From an uncultured Chloroflexia bacterium (GTDB lineage: Bacteria; Chloroflexota; Anaerolineae; JAAYZQ01), in assembly GCA_963700285.1 (NCBI GenBank), contig CAVOXA010000010.1, positions 224,001-288,000 on the forward strand: DNA of 64,000 nucleotides, in the 5' to 3' direction. A program made the translations under genes and the position numbers. The notes below the pieces were generated by a model that saw only the letters and a list, made by a program, of their open reading frames with translations, made no database searches and had not been told where the DNA came from. Shown here piece by piece: positions 3,040 through 25,852 of this stretch (position 1 is its first letter; each line of letters begins with the position of its first letter).

Positions 3040-3073
3040 AACCTCCCGCAGGTTTCTGAACCTGCGGGAGGTT
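3040..3073. repeat. Palindromic repeat, copy 1 (AACCTCCCGCAGGTT-N4-AACCTGCGGGAGGTT)
   Basis: Perfect 15-bp inverted repeat with a 4-nt loop; recurs at 4143 and 4524, with a variant at 4879. Confidence 0.95.
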
Positions 3074-3083
3074 GGAGATGCCC

Positions 3084-4193
3084 ATGAAGACCTACAAGAA
3101 TCTCTACCCGCGCATCTGCGCCTTTGAAAACCTGGAAATCGCCTTCCGCAAAGCGCGTCGCGGCAAGCGCCACAAGCCCAACGTCGCCGCCTTCGAGTGT
3201 AACCTGGACCTGGAGCTCCTCGATCTGCAGGACGACCTCCTCTCTGGAACCTACAGGCCCGGCGGCTACCGCCACTTTACCATCTATGAAGGCAAGCCGC
3301 GCCGCATCAGCGCCGCCCCTTTCCGCGACCGGGTGGTGCACCACGCTCTGTGCAATGTCATCGAGCCGATCTGGGAAGCCAGGTTCGTCCACGACTCGTA
3401 CGCCTGCCGCGCCGGCAAGGGCACCCACGCGGCCCTGGACCGCTGTACCCACTTTGCCCGGCGCTATCCCTACGTCCTGCAATGCGACGTCGTCCAGTTC
3501 TTTCCCTCGGTGGACCACGCCATCCTGCGTGACCTTCTGGCCCGCCACATCGCCTGCCGTTCCACCCTGAAGCTCATCGACCGGATCCTTGCCAGCGGCA
3601 CCGGCATACACAGCAAGAGCTACGAAATGCAGTGGTTCCCCGGCGACGACCTACTGGCTGCGACACGGCCCCGGGGCCTGCCCATCGGCAACCAGACCTC
3701 CCAGTTCTGGGCCAACGTCTACCTCCACGAACTGGACCGCTTTGTCAAGCAGACCCTGCACTGCCAGCGCCAGAGCCCTGCCTACCTGCGCTACTGCGAC
3801 GATTTCCTGCTCTTTGCCGGCGACAAGCCTACGCTGCACCGCTGGCGCCGAGAGATTGAGGGCTTTATGGCCACGCTACGTCTCAAAATCCATCCCCACA
3901 GGACCGTCGTCTACCCGGTCAAGAACGGCATCCCCTTTCTGGGTTTCAAGATCTATCCTGGTCACCGCCGGCTCAGGCGCTGCAACGGCGTACGCTTCCA
4001 GCGCCGCTTCCGAGCTCTGCTAGACTGCTACGCCACAGGCGAGATCGACCGAGAGCAGCTCGATGCCTCCGTCCGCGGCTGGGTGGCCCACACCTCCCAC
4101 GGCGACACCTGGGGATTGCGGCGCAGCCTACTCTCTCGCCACAACCTCCCGCAGGTTCGGAAACCTGCGGGAGGTTTGGATGGGCCACGATGA
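3084..4193 (+). CDS. DGR reverse transcriptase
   Basis: GLPIGNQTSQFWANVYL (DGR-type SQ motif), YLRYCDDF catalytic motif, PFRDRVVHHAL, FLGF. No endonuclease domain. Start placed at the ATG after GGAG. Confidence 0.95.
   Translation: MKTYKNLYPRICAFENLEIAFRKARRGKRHKPNVAAFECNLDLELLDLQDDLLSGTYRPGGYRHFTIYEGKPRRISAAPFRDRVVHHALCNVIEPIWEARFVHDSYACRAGKGTHAALDRCTHFARRYPYVLQCDVVQFFPSVDHAILRDLLARHIACRSTLKLIDRILASGTGIHSKSYEMQWFPGDDLLAATRPRGLPIGNQTSQFWANVYLHELDRFVKQTLHCQRQSPAYLRYCDDFLLFAGDKPTLHRWRREIEGFMATLRLKIHPHRTVVYPVKNGIPFLGFKIYPGHRRLRRCNGVRFQRRFRALLDCYATGEIDREQLDASVRGWVAHTSHGDTWGLRRSLLSRHNLPQVRKPAGGLDGPR
4143..4176. repeat. Palindromic repeat, copy 2 (inside the RT 3' end)
   Basis: AACCTCCCGCAGGTT-CGGA-AACCTGCGGGAGGTT. 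Confidence 0.95.
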
Positions 4194-10699: not shown

Positions 10700-10728
10700 T
10701 TGACAAGATCGGTCCACTATGGTACACT
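10700..10728 (+). promoter_or_regulatory. Sigma70 promoter of the csoR-copZA operon
   Basis: TTGACA-17 bp-TACACT with an extended -10 TG. Confidence 0.8.
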
Positions 10729-10735
10729 GCGCCCC

Positions 10736-10759
10736 ACCCCACCCCCTAGGGGGTGGGGT
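10736..10759. promoter_or_regulatory. Putative CsoR operator
   Basis: Perfect 24-bp palindrome ACCCCACCCCCTAGGGGGTGGGGT between the -10 and the csoR RBS; C/G tracts are typical of CsoR operators. Confidence 0.75.
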
Positions 10760-10779: not shown

Positions 10780-11058
10780 ATGGCCGAGGAGTACAAACAG
10801 GCAATTATCAACCGGTTGAAGAGTATCGAGGGGCATGCGCGCGGTATCCAGCGTATGATAGACGAGGATGCCTATTGCATCGACATCATCAACCAGAACT
10901 TGGCCGTACAGCGGGCACTGGAAAAGGTCAATAGCTTGATCCTAGAGCGCCACCTCCAGACCTGCGTGACCACGGCCCTCCGCAGCGATGACCCGGCGGA
11001 AAGGGAGAGGGTCATCACCGAGATCATGAATGTATTTGAGACGACAGGCAAGTTGTAA
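10780..11058 (+). CDS. csoR: Copper-sensing repressor CsoR
   Basis: RLKSIEGHARGIQRMI..DAYCIDI...HLQTCV (C-H-C metal site). Confidence 0.9.
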   Translation: MAEEYKQAIINRLKSIEGHARGIQRMIDEDAYCIDIINQNLAVQRALEKVNSLILERHLQTCVTTALRSDDPAERERVITEIMNVFETTGKL

Positions 11059-11136
11059 AGACATTTTTCCAGTTTCGTGTTGCGTGATTGCCACCTCATG
11101 GTGCACGTAACACGCAACGTGACTGAGGAGGTCCAG

Positions 11137-11340
11137 ATGAAGACGATTACCTTGAGTATTCCCAATATTAGCTGCAACCACTGCGTGATGACGGTTAAGC
11201 GCGAGGCCGGCTTTGTGGATGGCGCCGAGTTCCTGAGCGGTGATGTGGAAGCCAAAACCGCCACGTTCCAGGTCGCGAGCGACGAGGCGCTGACCACCCT
11301 CAAGTCGACGCTGGCCGAGGCCGGATATCCGGCAGACTAG
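11137..11340 (+). CDS. copZ: Copper chaperone CopZ (HMA domain)
   Basis: ISCNHC motif; GAGGAGG RBS. Confidence 0.85.
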   Translation: MKTITLSIPNISCNHCVMTVKREAGFVDGAEFLSGDVEAKTATFQVASDEALTTLKSTLAEAGYPAD

Positions 11341-11456
11341 CGGACGAACTGGAAAGAGGTAGATCCGGGGGCCGGGAACCACCGCACCAGCACACTTGCC
11401 CGCAACTACCCAACTTATCAGAGTACCAATAACCGATCTATCACCATCCCGAGGCC

Positions 11457-13955
11457 ATGTCGACCAAACAAGTAACCCTGCCCGTCACGGGCATGACCTG
11501 CGCCAACTGCTCGCTGAACGTAGAGCGCAACCTGAAGCGCTTGGACGGCGTTGAAACGGCCACAGTAAACCTGGCCACCGAGAGAGCATCAGTCACCTAT
11601 GATCCCTCGGTCGTCGGTGAGGGCCAATTTCTTGCCCTCATCCGCGACATCGGGTATGATGTGGCGACGGCCAAGGCAGAACTACCCATAACGGGTATGA
11701 CCTGCGCGAATTGCTCCATGACGGTAGAGAGAACACTGAACCGCCTCGATGGGGTCGTGTCGGCCAACGTCAACCTGGCCAGCGAGCGGGCCAGCGTGGA
11801 ATACCTGCCCGGCGCCATCAGTCTGGCGGCCATCCAGCAGGCGATCCGGGACGTGGGTTACGATGTGATCATCACAGGGGAGGGCGAGGCGGCCGAAGAC
11901 GTAGAGCGCGCCGCCCGCGAGGCCGAGATCCGCGACCAGACCCGAAAGTTCTGGGTGGGCGCAGCCTTCACCTTGCCGCTCTTTTTGCTGAGCATGGGGC
12001 GCGATTTTGGCCTCCTGGGCGCGTGGGCCTACGCGCCATGGGTCAACTGGCTCTTCCTGGTCCTGGCCACGCCCGTCCAGTTCTACGTCGGCGGTGACTA
12101 TTACGTAGGCGCCTACAAGAGCTTGCGGTCCGGGTCAGCCAACATGGACGTATTGGTGGCCATGGGCTCATCGGCCGCGTACTTTTACAGTCTGGCCGTG
12201 TTGCTGTTCCCCGGCCTGGGTGGCCACGTCTATTTCGAGACGTCGGCCATGATCATCACCCTCATCAAGCTGGGCAAGGTGCTCGAGGCTCGGGCCAAGG
12301 GCCGCACCTCCGAGGCCATCAAAAAGCTCATGGGGTTGCGCCCCAAGACAGCGCACGTGCTTCGAGACGGCTCTGAAGTAGAAATCCCCATCGAGTCCGT
12401 GGCACTGGCCGATGTGGTGGTGGTACGCCCCGGCGAGCGGCTGCCGGTGGATGGCGTCGTCATCGATGGCCGTTCAGCGGTCGATGAGTCGATGCTCACC
12501 GGCGAGAGCTTGCCTGTGGACAAGGGACCGGGTGATGAGGTCGTGGGCGGGACGATCAACAAGCAGGGATTGCTCAGATTTGAGGCCACCCGCGTGGGCG
12601 CTCAGACAGCATTGGCCCAGATCATCCGCCTTGTCGAAGAGGCCCAGGGGTCCAAAGCACCCATCCAAAGGCTGACCGATCGCGTCTCGGCGGTCTTTGT
12701 ACCAGCAGTCATCCTCATCGCCGCGCTCACTTTCCTGGCCTGGTTCTTTATCGGCGACGTGGGTTTCACCCAGAGCATGATCTTTATGGTTTCTGTGCTG
12801 GTCATTGCCTGCCCCTGCGCCCTGGGTCTGGCCACGCCCACGGCCATCATGGTCGGCACCGGCAAGGGTGCAGAGCACGGCATCTTGTTCAAGAACAGCG
12901 AGGCCCTGGAGCGAGCCCACGAACTCACGACGGTTGTCCTGGACAAGACCGGCACGATCACCAAGGGTGAGCCATCCATGACCGATGTGGTGCCGATAAA
13001 CGGCAAAGATCTGGCCATTGGCTCATTGACCGGTTCCTCCTTGCTCCGCTTGGCAGCGTCTGCGGAGAGGGGTTCCGAGCACCCCCTGGGCCAGGCAATC
13101 GTCCGGGGCGCGGTGGAAGAGGGCCTGGAACTGGCCGAACCAAACGGGTTTGAGGCGGTGGTAGGTCAGGGTATCATAGCGACCGTGGAGGGCCGGCAGG
13201 TGCTGGTGGGCTCGCCGAGGCTGTTGGAAGAACGCCGCGTGGCACTCAACAGGCTAGTGGCACCCTTGGCGCGGTTGGAGGCTGAGGCCAAGACGGCGAT
13301 GCTCGTGGCCGTGGACGGCGATGCGGTGGGCATCATCGCTGTGGCCGATACCATCAAAGAGGGCTCCGCCGAGGCGATCCGGCAGATGCAAGCCCTGGGT
13401 CTAGAAGTGGTCATGATCACCGGCGACAACCAGCGCACAGCCGAGGCCATTGTCCGACAGCTTGTCCCGAGCAACGTCGAAGGGCTTGCCCTTGGCGGAC
13501 GAGAAGGGGCAGGCATCAGCCGTGTGGTCGCCCAGGTGCTGCCCGGTGAGAAGGTGGATCAGGTGAAAGCCCTGCAAGCGGACACGGATGCCACAATCGG
13601 CATGGTCGGCGATGGCATCAACGATGCCCCAGCCCTGGCCCAGGCGGACGTAGGCATTGCCATCGGCACCGGCACGGACGTCGCCATGGCCGCCGCCGAT
13701 GTGACGCTCATGAGCGGCGACCTGCGCGGGGTGCCGCGGGCCATTGCCCTCAGCCGGGCGACCATGCGAACCATCAAGCAGAACCTATTCTGGGCCTTGT
13801 TTTACAACGTGATCCTGATTCCGCTGGCGGCAGGGGTCTTTTATCCATCGCTGGGAATTCACCTGCACCCTGTTCTGGCTGCCGCGGCGATGGCCTTTAG
13901 CAGCATTTTCGTCGTTACCAACTCTCTGCGACTGCGCAGGGTGAAGCTAATTTGA
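11457..13955 (+). CDS. copA: Cu(I)-translocating P1B-type ATPase
   Basis: Two GMTCANC domains, [26 protein letters not shown] and MAFSS motifs. Confidence 0.95.
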
Positions 13956-14026: not shown

Positions 14027-15886
14027 ATGGGTATGAGATTGAAGTATGGCTGGTTGATCGTACTGGTGGTCGTCGCATTGTTGACAGCAGCCTGCGGGCC
14101 GCAGGAAGATGTGCCAACGTTGGGCGAACAGGCCACCGCCGAGCAGTCAGAGGCTGCTGGGGTTGGTGAAACCCCCAAAGCAGCCGCTGCGGAGGATCCG
14201 ACAGCGGAACCCGCCGAAAGCTCGGCATCTGCCGCAGAGCTGCCCGTCGATGAGGGTGACTGGCATGTACTGGGCTCGCCGGACGCGCCCATCACCATTG
14301 TCGAGTACTCGGACTTTCAGTGACCGTTCTGTGCCAGTTACGTCCGTGAGACGTTCCCACAGATACTAGAGTCCTACATCGGCAGCGGTGATGTCCGCTA
14401 CGTATTCCGCAATTTTCCGCTATTCTCCATCCATCCCCAGGCTGCAAAGGCCGCCGAAGCAGCCGAGTGCGCCGGTGAGCAAGGGGCATTCTGGGAGATG
14501 CATGACGTACTCTTTGATGGCCAGGACCAATGGTCCGGCAGTCCAGATGCAGAAGATGTCTTCAAAGGGATGGCGAACGGCCTGGATTTGGACCAGGCCC
14601 AGTTTGATGCCTGTCTGGACGAGGGCAATTATGCCGACAAGGTGATCGCTGACTACCAGGAGGGCGCTGCCCTGGGTATCACCGGCACACCGGCCTTCCG
14701 AGTCAATGGCGCGGCCATGTCGGGAGCCCAGCCCTTCTCCGCATTCCAGCAGCAGATCGACTATTTTCTGGCGGGAGGTGAAGCTCCCAGCCTGGAGGTG
14801 GACTCTGACAGCTATCGCAGCATGGGACGGGCGGACGCGCCGGTGGTAGTCACCGAATTCTCGGACTACCAGTGACCGGCCTGTTCATCGATCGCCCGTG
14901 AGGTGATCCCAGACCTTATCGAACAGTATGTCGATACCGGCAAAGCTCGTTACGTATACCGCGAGTTTCCATTGACTTCCATCCACCCTGTCGCGCAAAA
15001 AGCGTCGGAGGCGGCCATATGCGCCGGCCAGCAGGGAAAGTATTGGGAGATGAACGAGCACCTTTTTGCCACCCAGGCAGAGTGGTCACAGGCAGCCGAT
15101 CCGGCCCAGCAATTCAGCACCTATGCCACAGAATTGGAATTGGATACCGATGCCTTTGACGAGTGCCTGGCTTCCGGCGAGGGAGCAATCGTAGTCCAGG
15201 GGGACCTGCTGACCGGCGAATCGCTGGGTGTGAACGCCACCCCCTACTTTTTTATCAATGACATGCCCATCCGTGGCGGCCTGCCCATTGAGGCGCTAGG
15301 CCGCATCATCGACTATGCGGCCGCAGGCGGTCCCCCACCCGAGATTGTGCCCAGCGGTCCCGACTGGCACATGCGAGGAAACCCGCAAACGGCGGGGGCC
15401 ATCACCGTGGCCTTTGTGGACTATGCCAGCCCCGAGTCGGCAGAACACGCCACAGAGGTATTGCCACAGTTGGTGGAAGAGTACATCGACAGCGGCCAGT
15501 TGGTCTATGTCCTGCATCCCTGGACAGAGGGAGAGGACAGCCCTGGTACCCTGGCAGCCATCGCCGCCGAGTGCGCAGGCCAGCAGGACAAGGGTTGGGA
15601 GATGCATGACAAGATCTTGGCCGATCAGGAGGCATGGACCACAGCCAGCGATCCAGGCTCTCACTTTGCTGACTATGCCAAAGCGCTGGATGTGGACTCG
15701 GCCGGGTTCGAGGCTTGCCTGGAATCAGCAGGGGCCAAGCTGCGGGCGCAGGCCGGAAGCGTGGTCGGTGCGCTCTATGGCGTGCCAGGCGCACCTATCT
15801 TTCTATTCAACAATGGCCAGGGGCAAGAGGGATCACCCAGCTTTGACGAGTTCAAAGCCGTGATCGACTCGATTCTCGGCCCTTAG
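14027..15886 (+). CDS. Triple DsbA/thioredoxin-domain lipoprotein; predicted selenoprotein with two Sec (UPFC at codon 99, UPAC at codon 283)
   Basis: Three same-frame ORF pieces join at TGA 14321-14323 (EYSDFQ*PFC) and TGA 14873-14875 (EFSDYQ*PAC); lipobox LTAAC; cis-Pro motifs GTP, ATP, GAP. Confidence 0.88.
14329..14362 (+). promoter_or_regulatory. Candidate bacterial SECIS element 1
   Basis: ACGTC-CGTGA-GACGT apical hairpin plus a lower CTGTG/CACAG stem; the loop starts 22 nt after the UGA. Confidence 0.7.
14890..14908 (+). promoter_or_regulatory. Candidate bacterial SECIS element 2
   Basis: GATCGCC-CGTGA-GGTGATC hairpin; same loop and same distance from the UGA as element 1. Confidence 0.7.
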
Positions 15887-15980: not shown

Positions 15981-16943
15981 ATGAAAAAACTCTTGTTAAC
16001 ATTGGCTTTCTGCCTTACGGTCCTGACCATGCCTGGCCTGGCCCAGGACACACAACCGGCTTCGGGAGATACGCCCACGCTGGCGGACCTCCAGGTTGCC
16101 CTCTGGCCAGAATATGACCGGCCCGAAGTACTTGTGATCTACCGGGGTCTGTTCGCGCCTGATACCGCCTTGCCGGTTCCGGTGGAGATCCGTATTCCAG
16201 CCAGCGTTGGCCAGCCTACGGCTGTCGCCTACGTAGACGAGGCAGGGCAGCGGTTCAACCAGCAGCATACAACCCGCATCGAGGACGATCAACTGGTGGT
16301 GTCTTTTGAATTGCCCACGCTGGGCTTTCAGCTTGAATACTATGATGATCTGCGGATGGACTCGACAGGGGTGCGCGAATACACCTATTCCCATACGGCA
16401 GACTATCCTACCACGGCGCTGAATCTGGAGTTTCAGGTACCCCCTACGGCAGAGGCGTTCACGCTGGATCCTCCTGCTGACTCTGTGGGCCCAGAGGGCG
16501 ACGGCTTGACCTATCACCTGGTCCGCAAAGGTCCAGTGGCAGAGGGCGGCACTGAGGAGTGGACCCTTGTCTATCAGAAGGGTGATGACGAACTGACAGC
16601 CTCGGGCTTTGTCCAGGCTCCAACGCCGGTCGCTGCTGCACCGCCAGCAACAGGAGGCAGCGACAACACGACCGTTCTGATCTTCCTGGTGGCCTTTGTG
16701 GCCCTCGTCGGAGTCGGGGCAGGCGCGTTCTGGCTGGGCCGGCGGACTCTGTCCACCCCAGAGACGGTACCACCACCCGAACGACACAAGAGACGAGGTA
16801 GTGGGCAGGGTTCTCCACCCCCGCCGCAGCGGCTCTCCTTGTCCGCCCTGGAAGAGACGCCATTCTGCTACCAGTGTGGTACACAAGTGCGGCATGATGC
16901 CGAGTTCTGTCACAAGTGCGGCGCTGAGGTACGCAGAGGGTAA
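15981..16943 (+). CDS. Secreted/membrane protein with C-terminal TM and Zn-ribbon (ccm-associated)
   Basis: Signal peptide, LWPEYD motif, TM, CYQC...CHKC. Confidence 0.8.
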   Translation: MKKLLLTLAFCLTVLTMPGLAQDTQPASGDTPTLADLQVALWPEYDRPEVLVIYRGLFAPDTALPVPVEIRIPASVGQPTAVAYVDEAGQRFNQQHTTRIEDDQLVVSFELPTLGFQLEYYDDLRMDSTGVREYTYSHTADYPTTALNLEFQVPPTAEAFTLDPPADSVGPEGDGLTYHLVRKGPVAEGGTEEWTLVYQKGDDELTASGFVQAPTPVAAAPPATGGSDNTTVLIFLVAFVALVGVGAGAFWLGRRTLSTPETVPPPERHKRRGSGQGSPPPPQRLSLSALEETPFCYQCGTQVRHDAEFCHKCGAEVRRG

Positions 16944-16984: not shown

Positions 16985-17374
16985 ATGTCTTCGACTATGA
17001 AATTCATCATCGGTGGCGTTGTCGTCGTGGTCGTCATCGGCATCCTGATCGCCACCAGCTTCTCCGGTTCCACCAGCGACTATCTGACCATTGCCGAGGT
17101 CAAAGCCCTGGGCCCGGATCAGGCACGCGATTCGCGCGTGACCGGCGCCATCGTCGCCAATTCGGTCGAGTGGAGCACCCGCGACCTGCACCTGACTTTC
17201 GCCATTGAGGATGAGACAGGCACGCTGCCCGTATCTTACCACGGTCCCCAACCCGACATGCTGGTGGATGCCGTGGAGGCGGTAGCCGTTGGCAAGTATG
17301 ATCCTGCAGCCGGGGCCTTTGAGGCTGAAGAGTTGCTGATGAAATGCCCCTCCAAGTATGAGGAGAAGGAATAG
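16985..17374 (+). CDS. ccmE: Heme chaperone CcmE, CxxxY variant
   Basis: N-terminal TM, Y.G..PD, LLMKCPSKY. Confidence 0.9.
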   Translation: MSSTMKFIIGGVVVVVVIGILIATSFSGSTSDYLTIAEVKALGPDQARDSRVTGAIVANSVEWSTRDLHLTFAIEDETGTLPVSYHGPQPDMLVDAVEAVAVGKYDPAAGAFEAEELLMKCPSKYEEKE

Positions 17375-17410
17375 GCAGCTGGACTAGAAACTCGGAGGGG
17401 GCGAACGCTA

Positions 17411-19369
17411 TTGGTTCTCGCAGATATTGGTTACGGTGTACTATTATTGACCCTTGCCGCGGCCGCGTGGGCGACGGTTGCCGCGGTGCTTGGCGCCTGG
17501 AAACGCCGTCCAGAACTTGTTTCCAGTGCGCGCTATGCGCTGTTGGTCACGGCCGGCCTATCGACGCTGTCCGCAGTCCTTCTGCTCATCCTGCTTTTCA
17601 GCCACGAATTTGAGGTTCGCTACGTCTACGAACACGTGGCCACCTATCTCAAGCCGGCCTACGTGCTGGCAGCATTCTGGGCTGGGCTGGAGGGATCGCA
17701 ACTACTATGGTTGTGGATGCTGGCCATCTTTACCGGCATGGTGGTATGGCGCAAGCCGACGTGGGACCGTGAGTTGCGCCCATGGGCCATGGCCGCACTG
17801 GCCTTCACCCAGGCGTTTTTCGCCTTCTTGCTCATCATGCTCACCAACCCCTACGAGCTCTTGCCCTCAGTGCCGGTCGAGGGCACCAGCCTCAACCCAC
17901 TGCTCCAGAACTTTTGGATGATCATCCATCCCCCCATCATCTTTGCCGCCTATGCCCTGTGGACCATCCCCGCGGCCTATGCCTTTGCGGCCCTGGTCAC
18001 CGGCCGGCTGGATGCTGGTTGGCTGCGGGGCACCAGACGCTGGTCCCTGGCCGCGTGGGCATCCTTGGGCATCGGCATCCTGGTTGGGGCCTGGTGGGCG
18101 TACCTGGAGCTGGGCTGGGGGGGTTACTGGGGCTGGGACCCGGTGGAAAACTCGTCCCTGATCCCCTTTCTCGTAGGGACAGCCTTTGTCCACGCGGCCA
18201 TCATCCAGGATCGTCGCGATATGTTTCGCGCCTGGAATGTCTTTTTGGCGACCCTCACTTTTGTGCTGACCATCTTTGCTACCTTTGTCACCCGCTCGGG
18301 GCTGATTCAATCCGTGCACGCCTTTGCCGAGTCGCCCATCGGCTACTACTATCTAGGCTACATGTTGCTGGTTTTGGCCGCGACCATCGGGCTGATGCTG
18401 GCCCGCAGAAGAGAGCTGGAGGGAGAAGGGCAGTTGGGCGATCTCTTGTCCCGGGAGTTCATTTTCTTGATTACCATCCTACTGCTCCTGGGATCGGCGG
18501 CGGCGGTGTTGCTGGGCACCCTATGGCCCACCTTCACCGAAGCTTTGCGCGGGATGGCCTCCAGCCTGGGGCCCGACAACTATAACCAGTTCATGGGCCC
18601 GCTGGGCCTACTTTTGGTGCTGCTCATTGGCATTTGCCCCCTCATCGACTGGCGCAAGATCAGCGGCCAACAATTGCTCAAGAGCCTATGGGTCCAGGTG
18701 ATCGTAGCTCTTGTTACCGCGGTGTTGTTGATGGTATTCGGCGTGCGCGAGCTGTGGGCCGTGGTATCCTTCGCTGTTACAGCCTTTGTAGCCACAACCA
18801 TCGTGCTCCAGCTAGCCAAAGGCATCGTGGCCCGCATGCGGACCGCGAACGAAAATGTGCTGAAAGCGACGGTGCAAGCGGTCGCCAACAATCGGCGGCG
18901 GTACGGGGGGCAGATCATCCACTTTTCGATTCTGCTCATCGTCATCGGCATCACCGGCTCCCAGGCATATCAGAGCGAGGTACAGGTTGCCCTGGCCACA
19001 GGTGAAGCCGTGGACGTGAGCGGCTACACGCTGACCTACGAAGACTATACCTTCCAGCAGGTCGAAGAGGACGGCAACAAATCTCTCAACGAGGCGGTCC
19101 TTGAGGTCTACCGGGGGGATCGTAAAGTGGCGACGATCAGACCCCAGCGCAACCTGCACAGCAACGTCCAAGGTGCAGTGACCGAAGTCGCGTTGCGCTC
19201 CAATCTGAAAGAAGACCTATACGTCGTCCTGGCCAGTCTGGAAGCTGATGGGCTCGCCGCTTTCCAGGTGCTTATCAACCCCCTGGTAATCTGGTTGTGG
19301 ATCGGGGGCATGGTCTTGATCCTTGGTACTTTGATCGCGGGTTGGCCTCCCCGCAAGCGAGGGAGGTAG
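17411..19369 (+). CDS. ccmF: Heme lyase CcmF
   Basis: LNPLLQ, HPP, WAYLELGWGGYWGWDPVEN, SVHAF motifs. Confidence 0.95.
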   Translation: MVLADIGYGVLLLTLAAAAWATVAAVLGAWKRRPELVSSARYALLVTAGLSTLSAVLLLILLFSHEFEVRYVYEHVATYLKPAYVLAAFWAGLEGSQLLWLWMLAIFTGMVVWRKPTWDRELRPWAMAALAFTQAFFAFLLIMLTNPYELLPSVPVEGTSLNPLLQNFWMIIHPPIIFAAYALWTIPAAYAFAALVTGRLDAGWLRGTRRWSLAAWASLGIGILVGAWWAYLELGWGGYWGWDPVENSSLIPFLVGTAFVHAAIIQDRRDMFRAWNVFLATLTFVLTIFATFVTRSGLIQSVHAFAESPIGYYYLGYMLLVLAATIGLMLARRRELEGEGQLGDLLSREFIFLITILLLLGSAAAVLLGTLWPTFTEALRGMASSLGPDNYNQFMGPLGLLLVLLIGICPLIDWRKISGQQLLKSLWVQVIVALVTAVLLMVFGVRELWAVVSFAVTAFVATTIVLQLAKGIVARMRTANENVLKATVQAVANNRRRYGGQIIHFSILLIVIGITGSQAYQSEVQVALATGEAVDVSGYTLTYEDYTFQQVEEDGNKSLNEAVLEVYRGDRKVATIRPQRNLHSNVQGAVTEVALRSNLKEDLYVVLASLEADGLAAFQVLINPLVIWLWIGGMVLILGTLIAGWPPRKRGR

Positions 19370-19371
19370 GA

Positions 19372-19746
19372 ATGGGCATCGTCGTTTTCTTTCTCCTTGC
19401 GCTCGTCGCAGCTGCGATCATTGCTTACCCGCTGCTGGAAAGCCTGACGGGGCGTGGAAAACCGAACCAGTCTCCAGCCGTGACCGATGGGGACATCGAT
19501 CGCGCGGTGGACAAGCTCCGGCGGACACGGTCACAGGGGGACCATTCCTGCCCGGCCTGCGGCCAGGCCTACCAGGCAGGGGACCGTTTCTGCGTGCGCT
19601 GCGGCCATGATTTGGCCGCAGAGAAGGTTGTCCCAGCAGGACCTGCATGCCCCTCATGTGGTGCGAGCATCCACAAAGAGGATCAATTCTGTGCCAAATG
19701 CGGCCACCGCATGGATCTGGGGAGGCTGTCTGATGCTGCATCTTGA
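19372..19746 (+). CDS. Membrane-anchored double Zn-ribbon protein
   Basis: TM followed by CPAC..CVRC and CPSC..CAKC. Confidence 0.8.
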   Translation: MGIVVFFLLALVAAAIIAYPLLESLTGRGKPNQSPAVTDGDIDRAVDKLRRTRSQGDHSCPACGQAYQAGDRFCVRCGHDLAAEKVVPAGPACPSCGASIHKEDQFCAKCGHRMDLGRLSDAAS

Positions 19747-20977
19747 CCGGAGGCTGGCCCCCATTTTTCTGGGGTTGCTGCTCGTCCTCACACTATCAAC
19801 CGCAACCCAGGCCCAGGACGCAGGCGCCCTTGAAGGCCTGGTCGTAAATGGAACGGCAGGCGGCCCGGAAGTAGGCGCAGGGGTCGCCGTCACGCTGCAC
19901 GTGTCTCAGGGTGGAACCGAGGCGCATACCTTTGAAACCATGACCGGCGATGGCGGACGATTCCGGTTCGACGAACTCGATACCAGCGCCGGCCTGGAGT
20001 ACTGGCCAGAGGTCGAGTACCTCGGCGTGCCCTACCGCAGCGCAGAGCCATTCCGCTTTGACGGCGAAGAGACGACGCTGGCGACGACCATCACCGTCTT
20101 TGAAACCACCGACGACGACAGCGCCGTGGACCTGAACTCGGTCCACTTTATCGCCGAGTCCTTTGGCGAAGTGCTGCGCATATCCGAGATCCACCTCTTT
20201 GGCAATTCTGGGGATCGGACCTACGTTGGACAGCCCGGGGAAGGCGGTTCGCGGACCACCGTCAAAGTCCCTCTGCCCGAGAATGCGATGGGAATCGCCT
20301 TTGAACAGGAGGACTCGGCCGAGCGTTTCATCGAGGTCGAGGATGGCATCCTGGATACCCAACCGGTGCTGCCGGGCCAGGAAACATCCATGGTCTTTTT
20401 CTCCTATCACCTCCTGGTAATGGGCGACACGATCCCCCTGGAGCGGACCTTTGCCTACCCATTGGCCCACCTGAACCTGCTTGCCGCCCAACCGGGCTTG
20501 CAACTCAACAGCGAGCAACTGGAGATGCAGGGCCCTCAGTCGTTCCAGGGACGGCCCTACGACCTCTATGCCATCGATGATCTACCCGCCAATGCTCCCC
20601 TGGCCATGGAGTTTGTGCCAGTGGAGGTTCCAGGCGAGTCCCCTGCCGCCGGCCCGGGCGCGGAGGCTGTGCCTCCAACCGGGAGCCAGAGCACGGCGGG
20701 CACATCCACAAGGGGCAACCAAGAACTTTTGCGCTGGCTCGGCTTTGGCCTGGTGGCCCTGGTAGTGGCTGGCGCCATCGTCTATGGCGCGACCAGAAAG
20801 AAGCTACCCGCCACACCCAGGTCCGATGCCAACCTATCCGCGCGTCCAGAGACCCGGCAACTGCTGGTCAAGCTGGCCGATCTCGAGGATGCCTTTGAGG
20901 CAGGACGAGTGGACGAGGCAAGTTATGCGCGCCAGCGGTCTGAACTCTACATGGCCATCAAATCGCTCCAATCATGA
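19733..20977 (+). CDS. Exported protein with C-terminal TM (ccm-associated hypothetical)
   Basis: Signal peptide, G.VVNGT beta-sandwich-like start, TM, and a short C-terminal helical tail (LADLEDAFEAG.VDE..Y). Confidence 0.8.
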   Translation: MLHLDRRLAPIFLGLLLVLTLSTATQAQDAGALEGLVVNGTAGGPEVGAGVAVTLHVSQGGTEAHTFETMTGDGGRFRFDELDTSAGLEYWPEVEYLGVPYRSAEPFRFDGEETTLATTITVFETTDDDSAVDLNSVHFIAESFGEVLRISEIHLFGNSGDRTYVGQPGEGGSRTTVKVPLPENAMGIAFEQEDSAERFIEVEDGILDTQPVLPGQETSMVFFSYHLLVMGDTIPLERTFAYPLAHLNLLAAQPGLQLNSEQLEMQGPQSFQGRPYDLYAIDDLPANAPLAMEFVPVEVPGESPAAGPGAEAVPPTGSQSTAGTSTRGNQELLRWLGFGLVALVVAGAIVYGATRKKLPATPRSDANLSARPETRQLLVKLADLEDAFEAGRVDEASYARQRSELYMAIKSLQS

Positions 20978-21762
20978 CCAAAACATCCGCGCCGGTGATC
21001 GAGGTGAATAAAGTGACCAAGGCCTTTGGCCATCAGGTAGCGCTGCGAGGCGTGGACCTGAGCCTGGCCGAAGGTGAGTTTTTGGCGCTCTTTGGTCCCA
21101 ACGGCGCCGGCAAAACCACGCTGATCCGCATTGTCGCTTCGCTGATGCTGCCCACGGGAGGCGCGGTCCGTGTCCGGGGTGAGGATCTGAACAAGGCAGC
21201 CACATCGTTGCGCCGCCATATCGGCCTGATCTCCCACAATCCGCTGCTCTACGGCGACTTGACGCCGGATGAGAACCTAAACTTTTTTGCCCGCATGTAT
21301 GACCTGCCCCGGGCAGGCAAAGAGTCCGCGGCAGCCAGGATCGATGCCGTACTGGAGCAGGTCGGACTGACCGCCCGGCGGCGTGACCCGGTGCGGACAT
21401 TCTCCCGGGGCATGGTTCAGCGGCTGGCCATCGCTCGGGCCATCCTGCACGACCCGGAGATCATGCTCCTGGACGAGCCTTACACGGGCCTGGACCTACA
21501 GGCCGCCGACATGCTGCGGTCGGTGCTGCAGGAGCTGGCCGCCTCGAACCGAACCGTCATCCTGACCACCCACAATCTGGAACAGGGTCTGGAGATGTGC
21601 AACCGTGCCGCTATCCTCAACCAGGGCAGAGTCGCATGGGAAGGAACGCGGGCCGGTCTCGATCTGGCAGGCATGAAAGAGATCTATCGAGATGTGACCC
21701 GCCAGCCATCAAAAGTGAGACGTGATACGCGACCCACACCAGGCGAGGCGGGGCAAGCATAG
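20974..21762 (+). CDS. ccmA: Heme exporter ATP-binding protein CcmA
   Basis: GPNGAGKT, FSRGM, LLDEP; ccm context. Confidence 0.9.
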   Translation: MTKTSAPVIEVNKVTKAFGHQVALRGVDLSLAEGEFLALFGPNGAGKTTLIRIVASLMLPTGGAVRVRGEDLNKAATSLRRHIGLISHNPLLYGDLTPDENLNFFARMYDLPRAGKESAAARIDAVLEQVGLTARRRDPVRTFSRGMVQRLAIARAILHDPEIMLLDEPYTGLDLQAADMLRSVLQELAASNRTVILTTHNLEQGLEMCNRAAILNQGRVAWEGTRAGLDLAGMKEIYRDVTRQPSKVRRDTRPTPGEAGQA

Positions 21763-21812
21763 CTTAGGGCTCAATGCCCTTGCCCGGTAATCAGCGGCCT
21801 GAAACTCCAACT

Positions 21813-22490
21813 ATGAGCTACCTACGCAAAGTCACCGCCATCGTCTGGAAAGACATCGTCGCTGAACTCCGCACCAAGGAGATGTTCAGCGCCATGTTTG
21901 TCTTTGCTGTGCTGGTCATCGTCATCTTTAACTTTGCCTTCGAACTGAGGGTGAGCGGCGAAAGAGTGCGGCAGGTGGCGCCCGGGGCATTGTGGGTAGC
22001 CTTTACTTTCTCCGGGGTGCTGGGCCTGAACCGGGCCTTTGTCATGGAAAAGGACCGAGGATGCCTGGAGGGCCTGCTGCTGGCGCCCGTCGATCACTCG
22101 GCCATTTACTTTGGAAAGATGCTCTCCACGATACTGTTCATGCTCGTGGTCGAAGCCTTGATGCTGCCGGTATTCACTGCCTTCTTTGGCGTGAACCTTT
22201 TCGACCTGCGCCTGGTGCTCATCATTGTGCTGGGCACGGTGGGCTTTGCGAGTGTGGGGACCATTCTATCGGCCATGACGGCCCAGACGCGATCTCGGGA
22301 AGTACTGCTGCCCATCCTCTTGTTGCCCGTGGCCACACCGGTGCTCATTGCCGCCGTCAAGGCCACAGCGGGGATCCTGGACGGTCAAACAATGGGTGAC
22401 ATTGCCCGCTGGCTGCAACTCTTGGCAGCCTTTGCTGTCTTGTTTCCGGCGGTAGCGTTTATGACCTTTGACTATGTGGTCAAAGAGTAA
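21813..22490 (+). CDS. ccmB: Heme exporter membrane protein CcmB
   Basis: F..EKDRGCLEGLLLAP and REVLLPILLLP motifs. Confidence 0.9.
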   Translation: MSYLRKVTAIVWKDIVAELRTKEMFSAMFVFAVLVIVIFNFAFELRVSGERVRQVAPGALWVAFTFSGVLGLNRAFVMEKDRGCLEGLLLAPVDHSAIYFGKMLSTILFMLVVEALMLPVFTAFFGVNLFDLRLVLIIVLGTVGFASVGTILSAMTAQTRSREVLLPILLLPVATPVLIAAVKATAGILDGQTMGDIARWLQLLAAFAVLFPAVAFMTFDYVVKE

Positions 22491-22558
22491 GGTCCATGGT
22501 AACAAGCCATTGCAACTATCGAGCCAGATCTGCATCTAAGGGAGTGTAGGATGAGGAG

Positions 22559-23255
22559 ATGAGACAGAAAAAAGACACATGGCTCCTGGCTTTGACGGCC
22601 CTTAGCGCCGTACTGGTGATGGTGGCGATCTACCTGGCGCTGGTTCGCGCGCCAGATGCGAACCTGAGCAGTGAGACGGGGCGCTATGCCCAGCGCATCA
22701 TCTATTTCCACATTGCCACGGCCTGGGTTGGCTTTTTGGCCTTTTTCGTGACCTTTGTCGGCGGCATCGGCTACCTGCGCACGCGGGAAACGAAAATGGG
22801 ATATTGTTGCCCTGTCGTCCGCCGAGATTGGCACCGTGTTCATGCTGGGCGTGCTGGTCAGCGGTTCGATCTGGGCCAAGCCCGCCTGGGGCGTGTGGTG
22901 GGTCTGGGACGAGCGACTGACAATCTCCCTCATCCAGTTCCTGGTCTACGTGGGCTATCTGATGCTGCGCAGTGCGGTAGAGGATCCCTCCAGGCGGGCG
23001 CGTTTCGCCGCCGTGTATGGCATCGTAGCCTTTATCTCGGTCCCCATCAATTTCATCGCCATCCGCATGTGGCGCACCCAGCACCCCCTGATGTTCGGCA
23101 GCGAAGACGGCGGGCTGGGTCCCAATATGATGTTTGCTTTCTTTTTCAGTCTGATTACCTTCACGGTCTGGTACGTGACCCTGATGTGGCACCGGATCCG
23201 CCTGGAGCAGTCGCGGGACAACCTGGAACAGTTGAAACAGAGAATCTTGGACTAG
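22559..23255 (+). CDS. ccmC: Heme exporter CcmC (+1 frameshift near 22786-22796)
   Basis: IIYFHI in frame 1; WAKPAWGVWWVWDERL and TQHP in frame 2. Confidence 0.88.
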
Positions 23256-23261
23256 GAGGAC

Positions 23262-23417
23262 ATGATGACCTTTCTCGTAGCAGCCTATACGGTTTTGTGG
23301 GCAATCTCCTTTGGCTTGGTTTTTAGCATGGTCTGGCGCCAGCGCAAGATCGACTCAGAGATGCAGAGCCTGCGCGTGCTGGTCGAAGATGAGCCGCAAG
23401 CCGATCAAGAGTGGTAG
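23262..23417 (+). CDS. ccmD: CcmD-like small membrane protein (missing from the ORF track)
   Basis: 51 aa MMTFLVAAYTVLW...; AGGAGG RBS; directly after ccmC. Confidence 0.8.
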   Translation: MMTFLVAAYTVLWAISFGLVFSMVWRQRKIDSEMQSLRVLVEDEPQADQEW

Positions 23418-23528
23418 CGGTTCGGCTCCACCGGTTTGTTCACTTGGGGGCGGCGTTGAACCCTTTGCACAGGTATCTAGCCAAGGGCGGTGTTCCATAA
23501 CCACGGACCAGAGAAGACTGCAGACAAA

Positions 23529-24551
23529 ATGGACTCGCAAAATCTGACCCTGGGCATCGCCTTCCTGGGCGGGCTGCTTTCTTTTGTATCGCCGTGCGTG
23601 CTGCCGCTGGTACCGGCTTATATCGGATACCTGGGCGGCACAACGGTCATGGCCGGTGAAACTAGGCAGGCACGAGGGGAAACCCTCCGAATCTTTGGCC
23701 ATTCTCTGGTCTTTGTCCTGGGCTTCATGCTGGTCTTTGTGCTGTTGGGCGCTTCGGCCACGTTCTTTGGCCGCCTTTTGCTTGACTTTTCGCTACTGCT
23801 GCAACGGGTGGGCGGCGTTTTGCTGGTCGTTTTCGGCATGAGGCTGATGGGCACGGGCTGGAGCAAGCAGCGGTGGATAGTCTCCGCCCTGGTTGTGGCC
23901 CTGGTCACCTTTGTCTTCGCTTCGGGAATGGTGGCCTCGGGGCGCCCGGACTTGGGCGAGTACACCCTTGTCTGGTTGCAGGAGAGCCTGATGATGGGCC
24001 TCATCGTCCTCGCCGGGGCCGGCTGGAGCATGTCGCGCCAGATCATCCTGGCCGTTGGGGCCGGCATCCTCAACTTTTTGGCCAGTTTTGATACCCTGGT
24101 CCCCAACCTGGTGGCCAGCGTGCTGATCTCCCTGATCGCTATCTTTTTCAACCGCGCTGACCTCTTTTACTCGGAGAAAAAACTCGAGATCAACCAGAGC
24201 GGCCAGACTGGGTATCTTCGCTCACTGCTCTTTGGCGTCGTCTTTGCCGCGGGCTGGACGCCCTGCGTCGGGCCGATACTGGCCGGCATCCTCATCGTGG
24301 CCAGCCAGCTCCAGACGGTCGGGCAGGGCATCCTGCTGCTCGTCGCCTACTCGCTGGGACTGGGCATCCCGTTTCTGATAGTGGGTCTGGCCTTTGGTCC
24401 ACTATCACAGCAACTGCGCAAGATGAACCGCTATCTGGGCGTCGTGTCCATCGTCAGCGGCGTGCTGCTGGTCCTGATGGGGATCCTGATCTTTACCGAC
24501 AGCCTGACCTTCCTGGCCCAGTATGGCAATATTCTTGAATTCGAATTCTAG
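23529..24551 (+). CDS. ccdA: Cytochrome c biogenesis protein CcdA with an extra internal TM block
   Basis: SPCVLPLVP and WTPCVGPIL redox cysteines. Confidence 0.9.
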   Translation: MDSQNLTLGIAFLGGLLSFVSPCVLPLVPAYIGYLGGTTVMAGETRQARGETLRIFGHSLVFVLGFMLVFVLLGASATFFGRLLLDFSLLLQRVGGVLLVVFGMRLMGTGWSKQRWIVSALVVALVTFVFASGMVASGRPDLGEYTLVWLQESLMMGLIVLAGAGWSMSRQIILAVGAGILNFLASFDTLVPNLVASVLISLIAIFFNRADLFYSEKKLEINQSGQTGYLRSLLFGVVFAAGWTPCVGPILAGILIVASQLQTVGQGILLLVAYSLGLGIPFLIVGLAFGPLSQQLRKMNRYLGVVSIVSGVLLVLMGILIFTDSLTFLAQYGNILEFEF

Positions 24552-24561
24552 ATCGTGTCGT

Positions 24562-24609
24562 AGACACGCCATGTCGCAGACACGCCATGTCGCAGACACG
24601 CCATGTCGC
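24562..24609 (+). repeat. Tandem repeat, 3 x 16 bp (AGACACGCCATGTCGC)
   Basis: Three perfect copies with degenerate flanking partial copies. Confidence 0.95.
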
Positions 24610-24628
24610 GAGACACATTGAGGACCAA

Positions 24629-25159
24629 GTGAAACACTGGAAAGCTCTTGTTGGCATATTGATGATCCTGGTGCTGGGCCTAGGCGCCTGTGCTGGTCCT
24701 GGCGCAGGGTCCGGATCGTCCGCGCCCATTGGCATCAACACGGGAAACCAAGCCCGCGACTTTCGGCTCAAATCCCTGGACGGCAGCGAGGTCTCCCTCG
24801 GTGACTTTCAGGGTGACGTCGTATTGGTCAATTTCTGGGCTACCTGGTGCGCACCCTGCCGGGCCGAAATACCGGAATTTGAAGAGGCATACCAGACCCA
24901 CAAGGATGAAGGCTTTGTGATACTGGGGCTGAATGAACAGGAGGCCCCTCGAGCGATTGAGCCCTTTGTTGAGGAAATGGGCATGACCTACCCGGTGTTG
25001 TTGGATGAGCAAGGTCAGGTGATGAGCGAATACCGCGTGTTGGGATTGCCCACATCCCTGCTCATAGACAGGAATGGCGTGATCCAGGTACGGCACACAG
25101 GAATCCTGAGCGCGGCTCAGTTGGAAAAGCACTTGAGCAAGCTGCTGCCCAGTGAATAA
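24629..25159 (+). CDS. TlpA/ResA-family thiol-disulfide oxidoreductase lipoprotein
   Basis: LGLGAC lipobox, NFWATWCAPC, GLPTS. Confidence 0.9.
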   Translation: MKHWKALVGILMILVLGLGACAGPGAGSGSSAPIGINTGNQARDFRLKSLDGSEVSLGDFQGDVVLVNFWATWCAPCRAEIPEFEEAYQTHKDEGFVILGLNEQEAPRAIEPFVEEMGMTYPVLLDEQGQVMSEYRVLGLPTSLLIDRNGVIQVRHTGILSAAQLEKHLSKLLPSE

Positions 25160-25189
25160 ACAGCGGCGGTACCAGAGCAGGAGCATGAT

Positions 25190-25852
25190 TTGACGACAAC
25201 CACAACGCCCGCTCAAGGACGGAACCTGACCTTCTTTGTGGACAATGCGGTATTCAAACTGGCCAAGCACTGGTTGCTTCTGGCCAATCTGTTCTGGGGC
25301 CTCTACGCCGGCCTGCCGCTGCTGGCACCTGTCCTGATGGACGCCGGTTTGACCACTCCGGCCAAAATCATTTACATCGTCTACCGGCCGCTATGCCACC
25401 AGCTCCCAGAGCGCTCCTATTTTCTGGGCGGACCCGAGCACGTCTACTCGGCCGAAGAACTGGCAGATGCCGGGGTGGTGATCAACCCCTTTTCCCGTGA
25501 CATCGGCAACGAGACGGTGGGCTGGAAGACGGCTTTTTGCCAGCGAGACGTGGCCATCTATGGCTCCATCTTCCTGGCCGGACTCGGCTATGGCCTGATC
25601 CGGCGCCGGTGGCGAGGATGGAAAATGCCATTCCGCTACTACCTCCTCTTCCTGGTGCCCATGGGCATCGACGGAGTGCTGCAGCTCGTCGGCTTGCACG
25701 ATAGCGATTGGATCCTGCGCACCGTTACCGGCGCGATCTTTGGCGTGGGCTCGGTCCTCTTTGCCTACCCCTATTTGGATGAAGGGATGCGCGATGTGCG
25801 CCGCAGCATCACCAAGAGGCGCGCAGAGGAGCAATCGCAAGAAGTAGAATAG
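25190..25852 (+). CDS. DUF2085-like membrane protein
   Basis: LCHQLPERS, FCQRDVAIY, PMGIDG motifs. Confidence 0.8.
   Translation: MTTTTTPAQGRNLTFFVDNAVFKLAKHWLLLANLFWGLYAGLPLLAPVLMDAGLTTPAKIIYIVYRPLCHQLPERSYFLGGPEHVYSAEELADAGVVINPFSRDIGNETVGWKTAFCQRDVAIYGSIFLAGLGYGLIRRRWRGWKMPFRYYLLFLVPMGIDGVLQLVGLHDSDWILRTVTGAIFGVGSVLFAYPYLDEGMRDVRRSITKRRAEEQSQEVE

Follow-up and report, generated by a model that had tools for sequence, protein, structure and literature searches.

A gene on the forward strand (14033–15886, ending in TAG) of a 64,000-nucleotide stretch of DNA from an uncultured Chloroflexia bacterium, referred to here as the window, is predicted to encode a three-domain DsbA-like selenolipoprotein in which two in-frame UGA codons are very likely decoded as selenocysteine (Sec). 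Standard ORF calling breaks the gene into three pieces (14027–14323, 14498–14875 and 14903–15886), all lying in one frame, and the only internal stops of that frame, taken from 14027 or 14033 to 15886, are TGA 14321–14323 and TGA 14873–14875, which would be read as Sec99 and Sec283, respectively. Each falls at the position of the attacking cysteine of a DsbA-type CxxC motif, EYSDFQ-U-PFC at site 1 and EFSDYQ-U-PAC at site 2. An original prediction, made from the sequence alone, had described both the interrupted frame and the placement of the stops on the first cysteine of the motif, and both descriptions stand. Its length of 619 aa is borne out in so far as the frame is open from ATG 14027, but translation probably starts at the second ATG, 14033, giving 617 aa, because GAAAGG lies 7 nt ahead of this codon, as against 1 nt ahead of ATG 14027, and most orthologues begin at the position of the second ATG.

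TGA, rather than TGC or TGT, is also what contigs from two public sequencing runs of different studies carry. The contig of run X2 shows no differences from the window across the first TGA (14220–14370), and that of run X1 none across the second (14726–14912); both contigs are of low depth and either run may be the source sample. Two metatranscriptome contigs match 14937–15268 and 14959–15238 exactly, and these were set aside as proof of expression because DNA carry-over is possible.

The comparative evidence comes primarily from 23 genomes of the same family, 21 of which carry an orthologue, the other two, G018 and G021, yielding nothing but shorter paralogues. At site 1 the codon is TGA in 20 of the 21 and TGC in one; at site 2 it is TGA in 14, TGC or TGT in six and degenerate (TAT) in one. 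The 34 TGA sites, spread over 20 of the 21 orthologue-bearing genomes and many genera of the family, all lie at exactly these two codons, and this conservation excludes chance stops. The allele combinations, with U for Sec and C for Cys, are UU in 14 genomes, UC in five, CC in one (G009, the only Cys/Cys genome in the family) and U with a degenerate second site in one, with no instance of CU. A shorter DsbA paralogue in the family (L114, L115, L119 and L122; genomes G018, G021, G014 and G002) carries a TGA at its own attacking cysteine, followed by a different downstream sequence, and has TGC there in G009 and G010.

Homologues therefore alternate between TGA and cysteine codons, and they show no decay after the stops, since all three domains are 58–79% identical in four pairwise comparisons and third-position changes dominate throughout. 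TGA also serves as the ordinary stop of the neighbouring copA and of a 415-aa gene, so an altered genetic code is excluded. That the gene is a pseudogene, a product of sequencing error or the result of genome-wide reassignment of TGA is thus extremely unlikely: it could draw on the indel-rich assembly, in which selB and selD are both frameshifted (see below), but TGA recurs at these two codons in many genera, independent contigs agree on both, and purifying selection continues past the stops. For practical purposes it is refuted by the conserved pattern of TGA and hairpin.

A quick tree was built from 38 rows after masking the residues of motif and hairpin and omitting three frameshifted orthologues and one that is cut; in it, two-Sec forms occupy the deepest branches of the family, with four changes at site 1 and three at site 2. 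The likely history is that two Sec residues are ancestral, with repeated reversion, and this is not settled because several deep forks of the tree are weak. In the allelic series, reversion seems to reach site 2 earlier than site 1. Some relatives have a degenerating domain 2: in L099 (G019) site 2 has Tyr at the attacking position and in L108 (G011) it reads CTTC and is accompanied by a deletion, which suggests that only domain 1 is indispensable.

Both TGA codons are followed by SECIS-like hairpins, which had not been part of the original prediction. Hairpin 1 (14340–14354, +) has a 5-bp stem and a CGUGA loop 21 nt after the UGA, and hairpin 2 (14890–14908, +) has a 7-bp stem and the same loop. 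The bSECIS consensus model asks for a loop of 3–9 nt with G in its first two positions, a stem of 4–16 bp, a spacing of 16–37 nt and a minimum free energy of at most −7.5 kcal/mol (PMC13188914), and both hairpins agree with it in all respects, with 5-nt loops, stems of 5 and 7 bp, a spacing of 21 nt and folding energies of −11.5 and −11.7 kcal/mol for 45 nt. An inner 4-bp stem closing a 5-nt loop, with the loop starting 21 nt past the codon, occurs at all 34 TGA sites of the family, and the loop reads C(G/U)UGA at 33 of them, whereas none of the eight non-TGA alleles has that loop and only two have the stem. Paired cells amount to 93% over the 34 TGA sites vs 22–47% in slid controls, and four of the six stem pairs show changes on both sides, the pairing and covariation counts being inflated by kinship of the genomes. 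Changes that preserve pairing are found at site 1 of G014, G015 and G019 and at site 2 of G007 and G008; the double-sided changes represent few independent events, because most of them reflect the contrast between site 1 and site 2 and the genomes are related. Stability proved to be no discriminator and was rejected as such: the hairpins are no more stable than shuffled sequences (z −0.6 to −2.0), and TGA and Cys alleles show no difference in folding energy (−8.3 vs −8.4 kcal/mol), so that loop sequence and pairing pattern alone distinguish them.

The genome of the window (G000, 89% complete) has the machinery for Sec insertion that the original prediction had looked to: selA (470 bits), selB, selD and a tRNA-Sec with anticodon TCA were all found, and selD itself has a TGA at its catalytic position. 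Across the 23 genomes of the family, selA was found in 22, selB in 18, selD in 19 and tRNA-Sec in 20, and 17 relatives carry a full-length selD with one TGA. In the assembly of G000, frameshifts interrupt both selB and selD, which are open in most relatives. Assembly error is the likely cause, because 20 of 112 orthologues tested against one relative are likewise frameshifted in G000, with 48 shifts in 48,866 aligned residues; the 112 are those, among 359 ORFs from 20 stretches of the relative, whose best segment was at least 60% identical and at least 80% covered. Reads on selD came from other organisms or strains, and some lack extra bases near the frameshifts, which is a weak hint in the same direction. 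In the window itself, ccmC (22559–23255) is split near 22795, where the second frame matches TIGR01191, and this shift too is probably an assembly indel. Recoding, preferred originally over two independent nonsense mutations, is thus upheld by the alternation of TGA with Cys codons, by the hairpins at both sites and by the presence of the Sec machinery.

The idea that Cys alleles track loss of the Sec machinery was dropped. G009 has no match to selA, and this is probably an assembly gap because selB, a TGA-containing selD and tRNA-Sec are all present. Its genus, g7, holds one Cys/Cys and one Sec/Cys allele, and has two selB-like genes per genome, in G009 (C201, C19) and G010 (C131, C128). A SelD domain lacking TGA lies inside open frames of about 750 aa in three genomes (G020:C32, G016:C515 and G018:C83), probably a fused form. 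Genome-wide scans of G000 for further sites combining UGA and a hairpin yielded mostly chance matches, among which selD and one thioredoxin-like ORF look real. In the latter (G000:C1:1101108, +) a U-x-x-C motif contains a TGA and a similar hairpin is present, and the ORF is likely to encode a second hidden selenoprotein.

The full-length translation contains three Thioredoxin_4 stretches by Pfam, and the AlphaFold model, computed with Cys replacing Sec, shows a disordered tether followed by three DsbA-type domains (mean pLDDT 87.2, pTM 0.77), in line with the three DsbA domains originally proposed. The N-terminal lipobox of that proposal is also present: a signal peptide (14033–14095), recognised by motif only, consists of a hydrophobic stretch ending at a lipobox-like LLTAA-C, with the predicted lipidated cysteine at codon 14093–14095. 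A22 and C23 of the conserved AAC are at least 90% conserved among aligned orthologues, the genome carries lgt and lspA, and the protein is predicted to be lipid-anchored and to face outwards. An Ala/Glu/Pro/Thr-rich flexible tether follows (14096–14251), with pLDDT below 50 at residues 18–70 and a sequence that varies among orthologues. Domain 1 (14264–14776) carries UPFC, the cis-Pro loop motif GTP and a conserved Cys pair, C148/C196, in its helical insert, while domain 2 (14810–15331) carries UPAC, an ATP loop and the pair C332/C380. Domain 3 (15365–15883; Thioredoxin_4, 56 bits) keeps the pair C516/C564 and the loop proline P590 and has lost the catalytic motif, as had been recognised at the outset; the segment reads DYASPES (S468-P-E-S471), with both cysteines replaced by Ser. 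A CxxC in this domain is absent from all 17 aligned family orthologues, and none of the best 74 database matches has more than two CxxC motifs. Because domain 3 is conserved like domains 1 and 2 and under purifying selection, it must have a non-catalytic job, which may be substrate binding or scaffolding.

These features bear on a further possibility, namely that one of the two UGAs is often a real stop, so that the cell makes mainly truncated or separately initiated pieces and the full-length chain only under ample selenium supply. A chain that needs two recoding steps in series should be made at lower yield, in-frame ATG or GTG codons follow both stops, and site 2 has switched between Sec and Cys at least three times on the tree. 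Yet truncation at the first UGA would leave a lipid-anchored tether and a few strands, the downstream fragments would lack a signal peptide and start inside domains, and Cys/Cys orthologues are single full-length chains, so that we regard frequent termination as very unlikely. Among the best 74 database matches, 18 are such full-length proteins, carrying two CxxC motifs, and the start of the other 56 lies beyond site 1, which, judged from the protein records alone, is what truncation at the UGA would give; the suspicion that standard annotation fragments the protein was therefore well founded. The closest named matches are metagenome-assembled genomes of Anaerolineae and other Chloroflexota.

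NCBIfam assigns the full-length protein to NF041057 (Rcas_1661 family), the three domains together scoring 401.9, where the cut-off is 190; taken singly, domains 1, 2 and 3 score about 177–185.4 (177 for domain 1 of the window), 119–127 (127 for domain 2) and 89–91 bits, respectively, all below the cut-off. The two have in common a lipoprotein signal, a tether, a DsbA-type fold, a UxxC motif and a range within the Chloroflexota. However, NF041057 describes one 247-position domain with one Sec, and its top-scoring members have about 230–330 aa, whereas the protein described here has three domains, two Sec residues and one dead domain; on its sequence it is a variant of NF041057 and not a plain member. 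In a phylum sample of 251 genomes, NF041057 matches above the cut-off were short single-domain proteins with no or one TGA, and a survey of 301 genomes of the class, in which four candidates were scored per genome, gave single full-length matches from this family alone. The score against PRK11657 (DsbG) is 32.8 bits, vs a cut-off of 124.

Related selenoproteins have been described. DsbA-like and DsbG-like forms were already counted in PMC1794560, and Table 1 of a 2026 inventory of 119 prokaryotic selenoprotein families lists the NF041057 family as 'DsbG-like protein', with UxxC and one Sec (PMC13188914). DsbA-like selenoprotein forms 1 and 2 (PF01323) also have Sec in place of the attacking Cys of a DsbA-type motif, but with one Sec each and, in the available text of that inventory, no tandem lipoprotein form. 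More than one in-frame UGA is decoded per chain in MduS, MbdU, TsoB, the HUGP/GUXX-star fusion and Prx-like proteins with one or two Sec, but none of the proteins with two or three Sec is listed there as repeated DsbA domains with their own hairpins in an exported lipoprotein (PMC13188914). The class itself has tandem DsbA lipoproteins of two or three domains (e.g., in G228, G296, G064 and G160) that share the architecture, some with a dead domain or one Sec, but none of the 20 loci examined from other families has two Sec residues, and those of one family, f41, keep CxxC in all three domains. In nine loci of other families (L168, L170, L174, L175, L167, L172, L199, L201 and L202) a single Sec lies in the first, second or last domain, often together with a dead domain, and the placement of Sec in such repeats thus varies by lineage.

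The unusualness claimed for the protein was accordingly overrated, given that its domain belongs to NF041057, that the class abounds in tandem lipoproteins with dead domains and that bacterial proteins with two or three Sec are listed (PMC13188914). The combination of a tandem two-Sec, one-dead architecture, paired hairpins and a link to System I* was not found in the openly accessible papers searched, nor did these include one on the protein itself, and RefSeq records and preprint supplements, which lay outside that scope, may hold it; neither NF041057 nor Rcas, DsbA or Chloroflexi is named in the main text of the Haft preprint (10.1101/2022.07.06.499078). Both the domain and its chemistry are thus already known, and in the genomes and loci surveyed the tandem two-Sec, one-dead form was found only in this family.

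The gene stands between a copper unit and a cluster for cytochrome c maturation, a connection likewise additional to the original prediction. The recurrent order is csoR, copA, selenolipoprotein gene, zinc-ribbon protein, ccmE, ccmF, 415-aa protein, ccmA, ccmB, ccmC, ccdA, resA-like and DUF2085. In the window (all +), a csoR-like repressor gene and copA, for a copper P-type ATPase, occupy 10780–13955, directly upstream. They are preceded by a strong Sigma70-type promoter and a perfect C-tract/G-tract palindrome (10700–10759), similar in 11 relatives, which we take to be of the CsoR operator type and which is the likely operator of the csoR-like repressor. A membrane-anchored protein with a C-terminal zinc ribbon, conserved in the cluster, follows at 15981–16943, and then, at 16985–23417, come ccmE, ccmF, the 415-aa protein, a ccmA-like gene, ccmB, the frameshifted ccmC and a ccmD-like peptide whose ORF had no family match in profile searches. 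The genes for CcdA (DsbD transmembrane domain), a ResA/TlpA-like thioredoxin and DUF2085 complete the series (23490–25852). Among 18 loci of relatives, copA lies upstream in 17 and ccmE downstream in 17, both misses being contig ends, and ccdA is present in 14, the remainder being cut by contig or stretch ends. Elsewhere in the window, a reverse transcriptase (RVT_1) gene (3072–4193) adjoins that of a NACHT/HEAT/FGE-sulfatase protein (31–2967).

CcmE has the CPSKY motif of the System I* type in the window and in 16 of 17 loci, with one miss on a short contig. System I* is defined by a CcmE with a heme-binding Cys, often without CcmH, and its carriers include chloroflexi; the Desulfovibrio version works without CcmG or CcmH (PMC3601427). 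No CcmH was found in the 23 family genomes, which are incomplete, and a crude count gave 15 ORFs with at least three CxxCH motifs in G000. The membrane-anchored proteins at 15981–16943 and 19730–20977 are fixed parts of the ccm cluster and candidates for missing Ccm accessory roles; the C-terminal motif of the latter recalls, in our judgement, CcmI, and cluster searches (Atlas) with both returned mostly Chloroflexota hypotheticals or zinc-ribbon clusters.

From these observations we lean, by a modest degree, towards a two-Sec reductase or isomerase fed by CcdA that maintains the CcmE cysteine and the CxxCH motifs of apocytochromes in the reduced state and reverses oxidation driven by copper. 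Each UGA is very likely decoded through its own downstream SECIS hairpin to yield one full-length exported chain. CcdA would pass electrons across the membrane to the U-x-x-C sites, and these would reduce disulfides and oxidised cysteines on apocytochrome CxxCH motifs, as well as the single heme-binding Cys of the CPSKY-type CcmE, so that the selenolipoprotein might stand in for the absent CcmH. With two tethered active sites and a binding domain, one chain could mimic oligomeric DsbC, DsbG or ScsC, and the proximity of csoR-copA hints at a defence against thiol oxidation by copper. The reductase or isomerase reading is based on gene order, on the absence of oxidative partners and of CcmH, and on the known roles of DsbC and DsbG on single cysteines: these enzymes reduce single cysteines and copper-formed disulfides (PMC4624244), and oligomerisation is reported to block oxidative partners of such enzymes (PMC11634996).

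Other observations are less favourable to a reductase: a ResA-like reductase already belongs to the cluster, and System I* in Desulfovibrio dispenses with both CcmG and CcmH (PMC3601427). So is the fold comparison. The domains have a DsbA-class fold (thioredoxin fold, helical insertion and cis-Pro loop), with a Foldseek probability of 1.00 to DsbA1, BdbD and TsdA. Oligomeric DsbC and DsbG, trimeric ScsC, monomeric BdbD, Corynebacterium DsbA/TsdA and Wolbachia alpha-DsbA1 all share the fold class (E-values 1e-10 to 1e-5), and the matches to DsbC/DsbG/ScsC/BdbD-type structures each cover one domain only. The closest solved structures are of monomeric DsbA-type proteins, for example Corynebacterium DsbA/TsdA, Wolbachia alpha-DsbA1 and BdbD, which we take to be oxidases, with ScsC structures also among the matches. 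DsbC, DsbG and ScsC hold several active sites together, and ScsC also has a link to copper, but the present protein is a single chain, with no dimerisation or trimerisation stem, with Sec chemistry and with CcdA nearby instead of DsbD or ScsB; no oligomerisation domain appears in the AlphaFold model. A Foldseek match to the tandem DsbA-like domains of UGGT was rejected as homology (rmsd above 20, TM 0.2).

The double selenoprotein could instead be an envelope dithiol oxidase of the BdbD/MdbA kind, re-oxidised by a small molecule, oxygen, copper or another partner, with CcdA and the ResA-like protein supplying reduction. Its best sequence and fold matches are indeed to the DsbA/BdbD class, the cluster has its own CcdA-ResA pair, and thus already a ResA-like reductase, and environmental oxidation can sustain ScsC-type oxidase activity (PMC11634996). 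An oxidase is disfavoured by the missing partners: neither DsbB nor VKOR was found in G000, nor in 20 of the 23 family genomes, VKOR being absent from all 23 and DsbB occurring in three, beside a different DsbA gene, in what are incomplete genomes. A diselenide-like Se-S bond is generally more reducing than the disulfide, and an oxidase would oppose heme attachment, yet the gene is tied to ccmE in two families. We therefore consider an oxidase unlikely, if still a serious contender.

The second of these families bears equally on a role primarily in copper handling, by Cu(I) binding or by repair of copper-damaged thiols within the csoR-copA unit, similar to ScsC and with only an incidental link to ccm. 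Among 20 high-scoring loci from other families, three, all f41, have a homologue with three Cys domains heading the same ccmE...ccdA-tlpA cluster, with no copA or csoR within the stretches examined, and no ccm cluster lies near the other 17. The association with ccm thus extends further than that with copA, yet is not general, and the 17 loci also count against the reductase or isomerase reading. In support of copper handling stand copA, which immediately precedes the gene in 17 of 18 relatives and itself follows a conserved promoter and an operator-like palindrome, and the ScsC structures among the fold matches, but in one relative a strong hairpin separates copA from the selenolipoprotein gene, and co-transcription is an assumption. 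A primarily copper-related function appears quite unlikely to us.

The CcdA-fed reductase or isomerase thus remains the preferred reading, and it can be extended, tentatively and as something we would not expect on balance, to a family-wide single-chain PDI-like selenoenzyme, with two Sec-active domains and an inactive one for binding, that takes the place of CcmH in System I*. If true, cytochrome c biogenesis would gain its first selenoprotein, an exported chain made through two consecutive SECIS-directed recoding events and represented by a natural UU/UC/CC allelic series.

For the bacterial selenoproteome, the gene adds an exported double-Sec thiol oxidoreductase of a kind that annotation cuts into pieces. 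Its two matched in-frame hairpins, with their natural losses, delimit a SECIS specific to the lineage and allow serial Sec insertion to be tested, and the scaffold makes testable the benefit of Sec over Cys, by means of natural UU, UC and CC orthologues at about 55–70% identity, as well as the source of thiol redox control in a System I* that lacks CcmH. For these anaerobic sediment Chloroflexota, with their many multiheme cytochromes, it would tie selenium to cytochrome c assembly and to copper stress.
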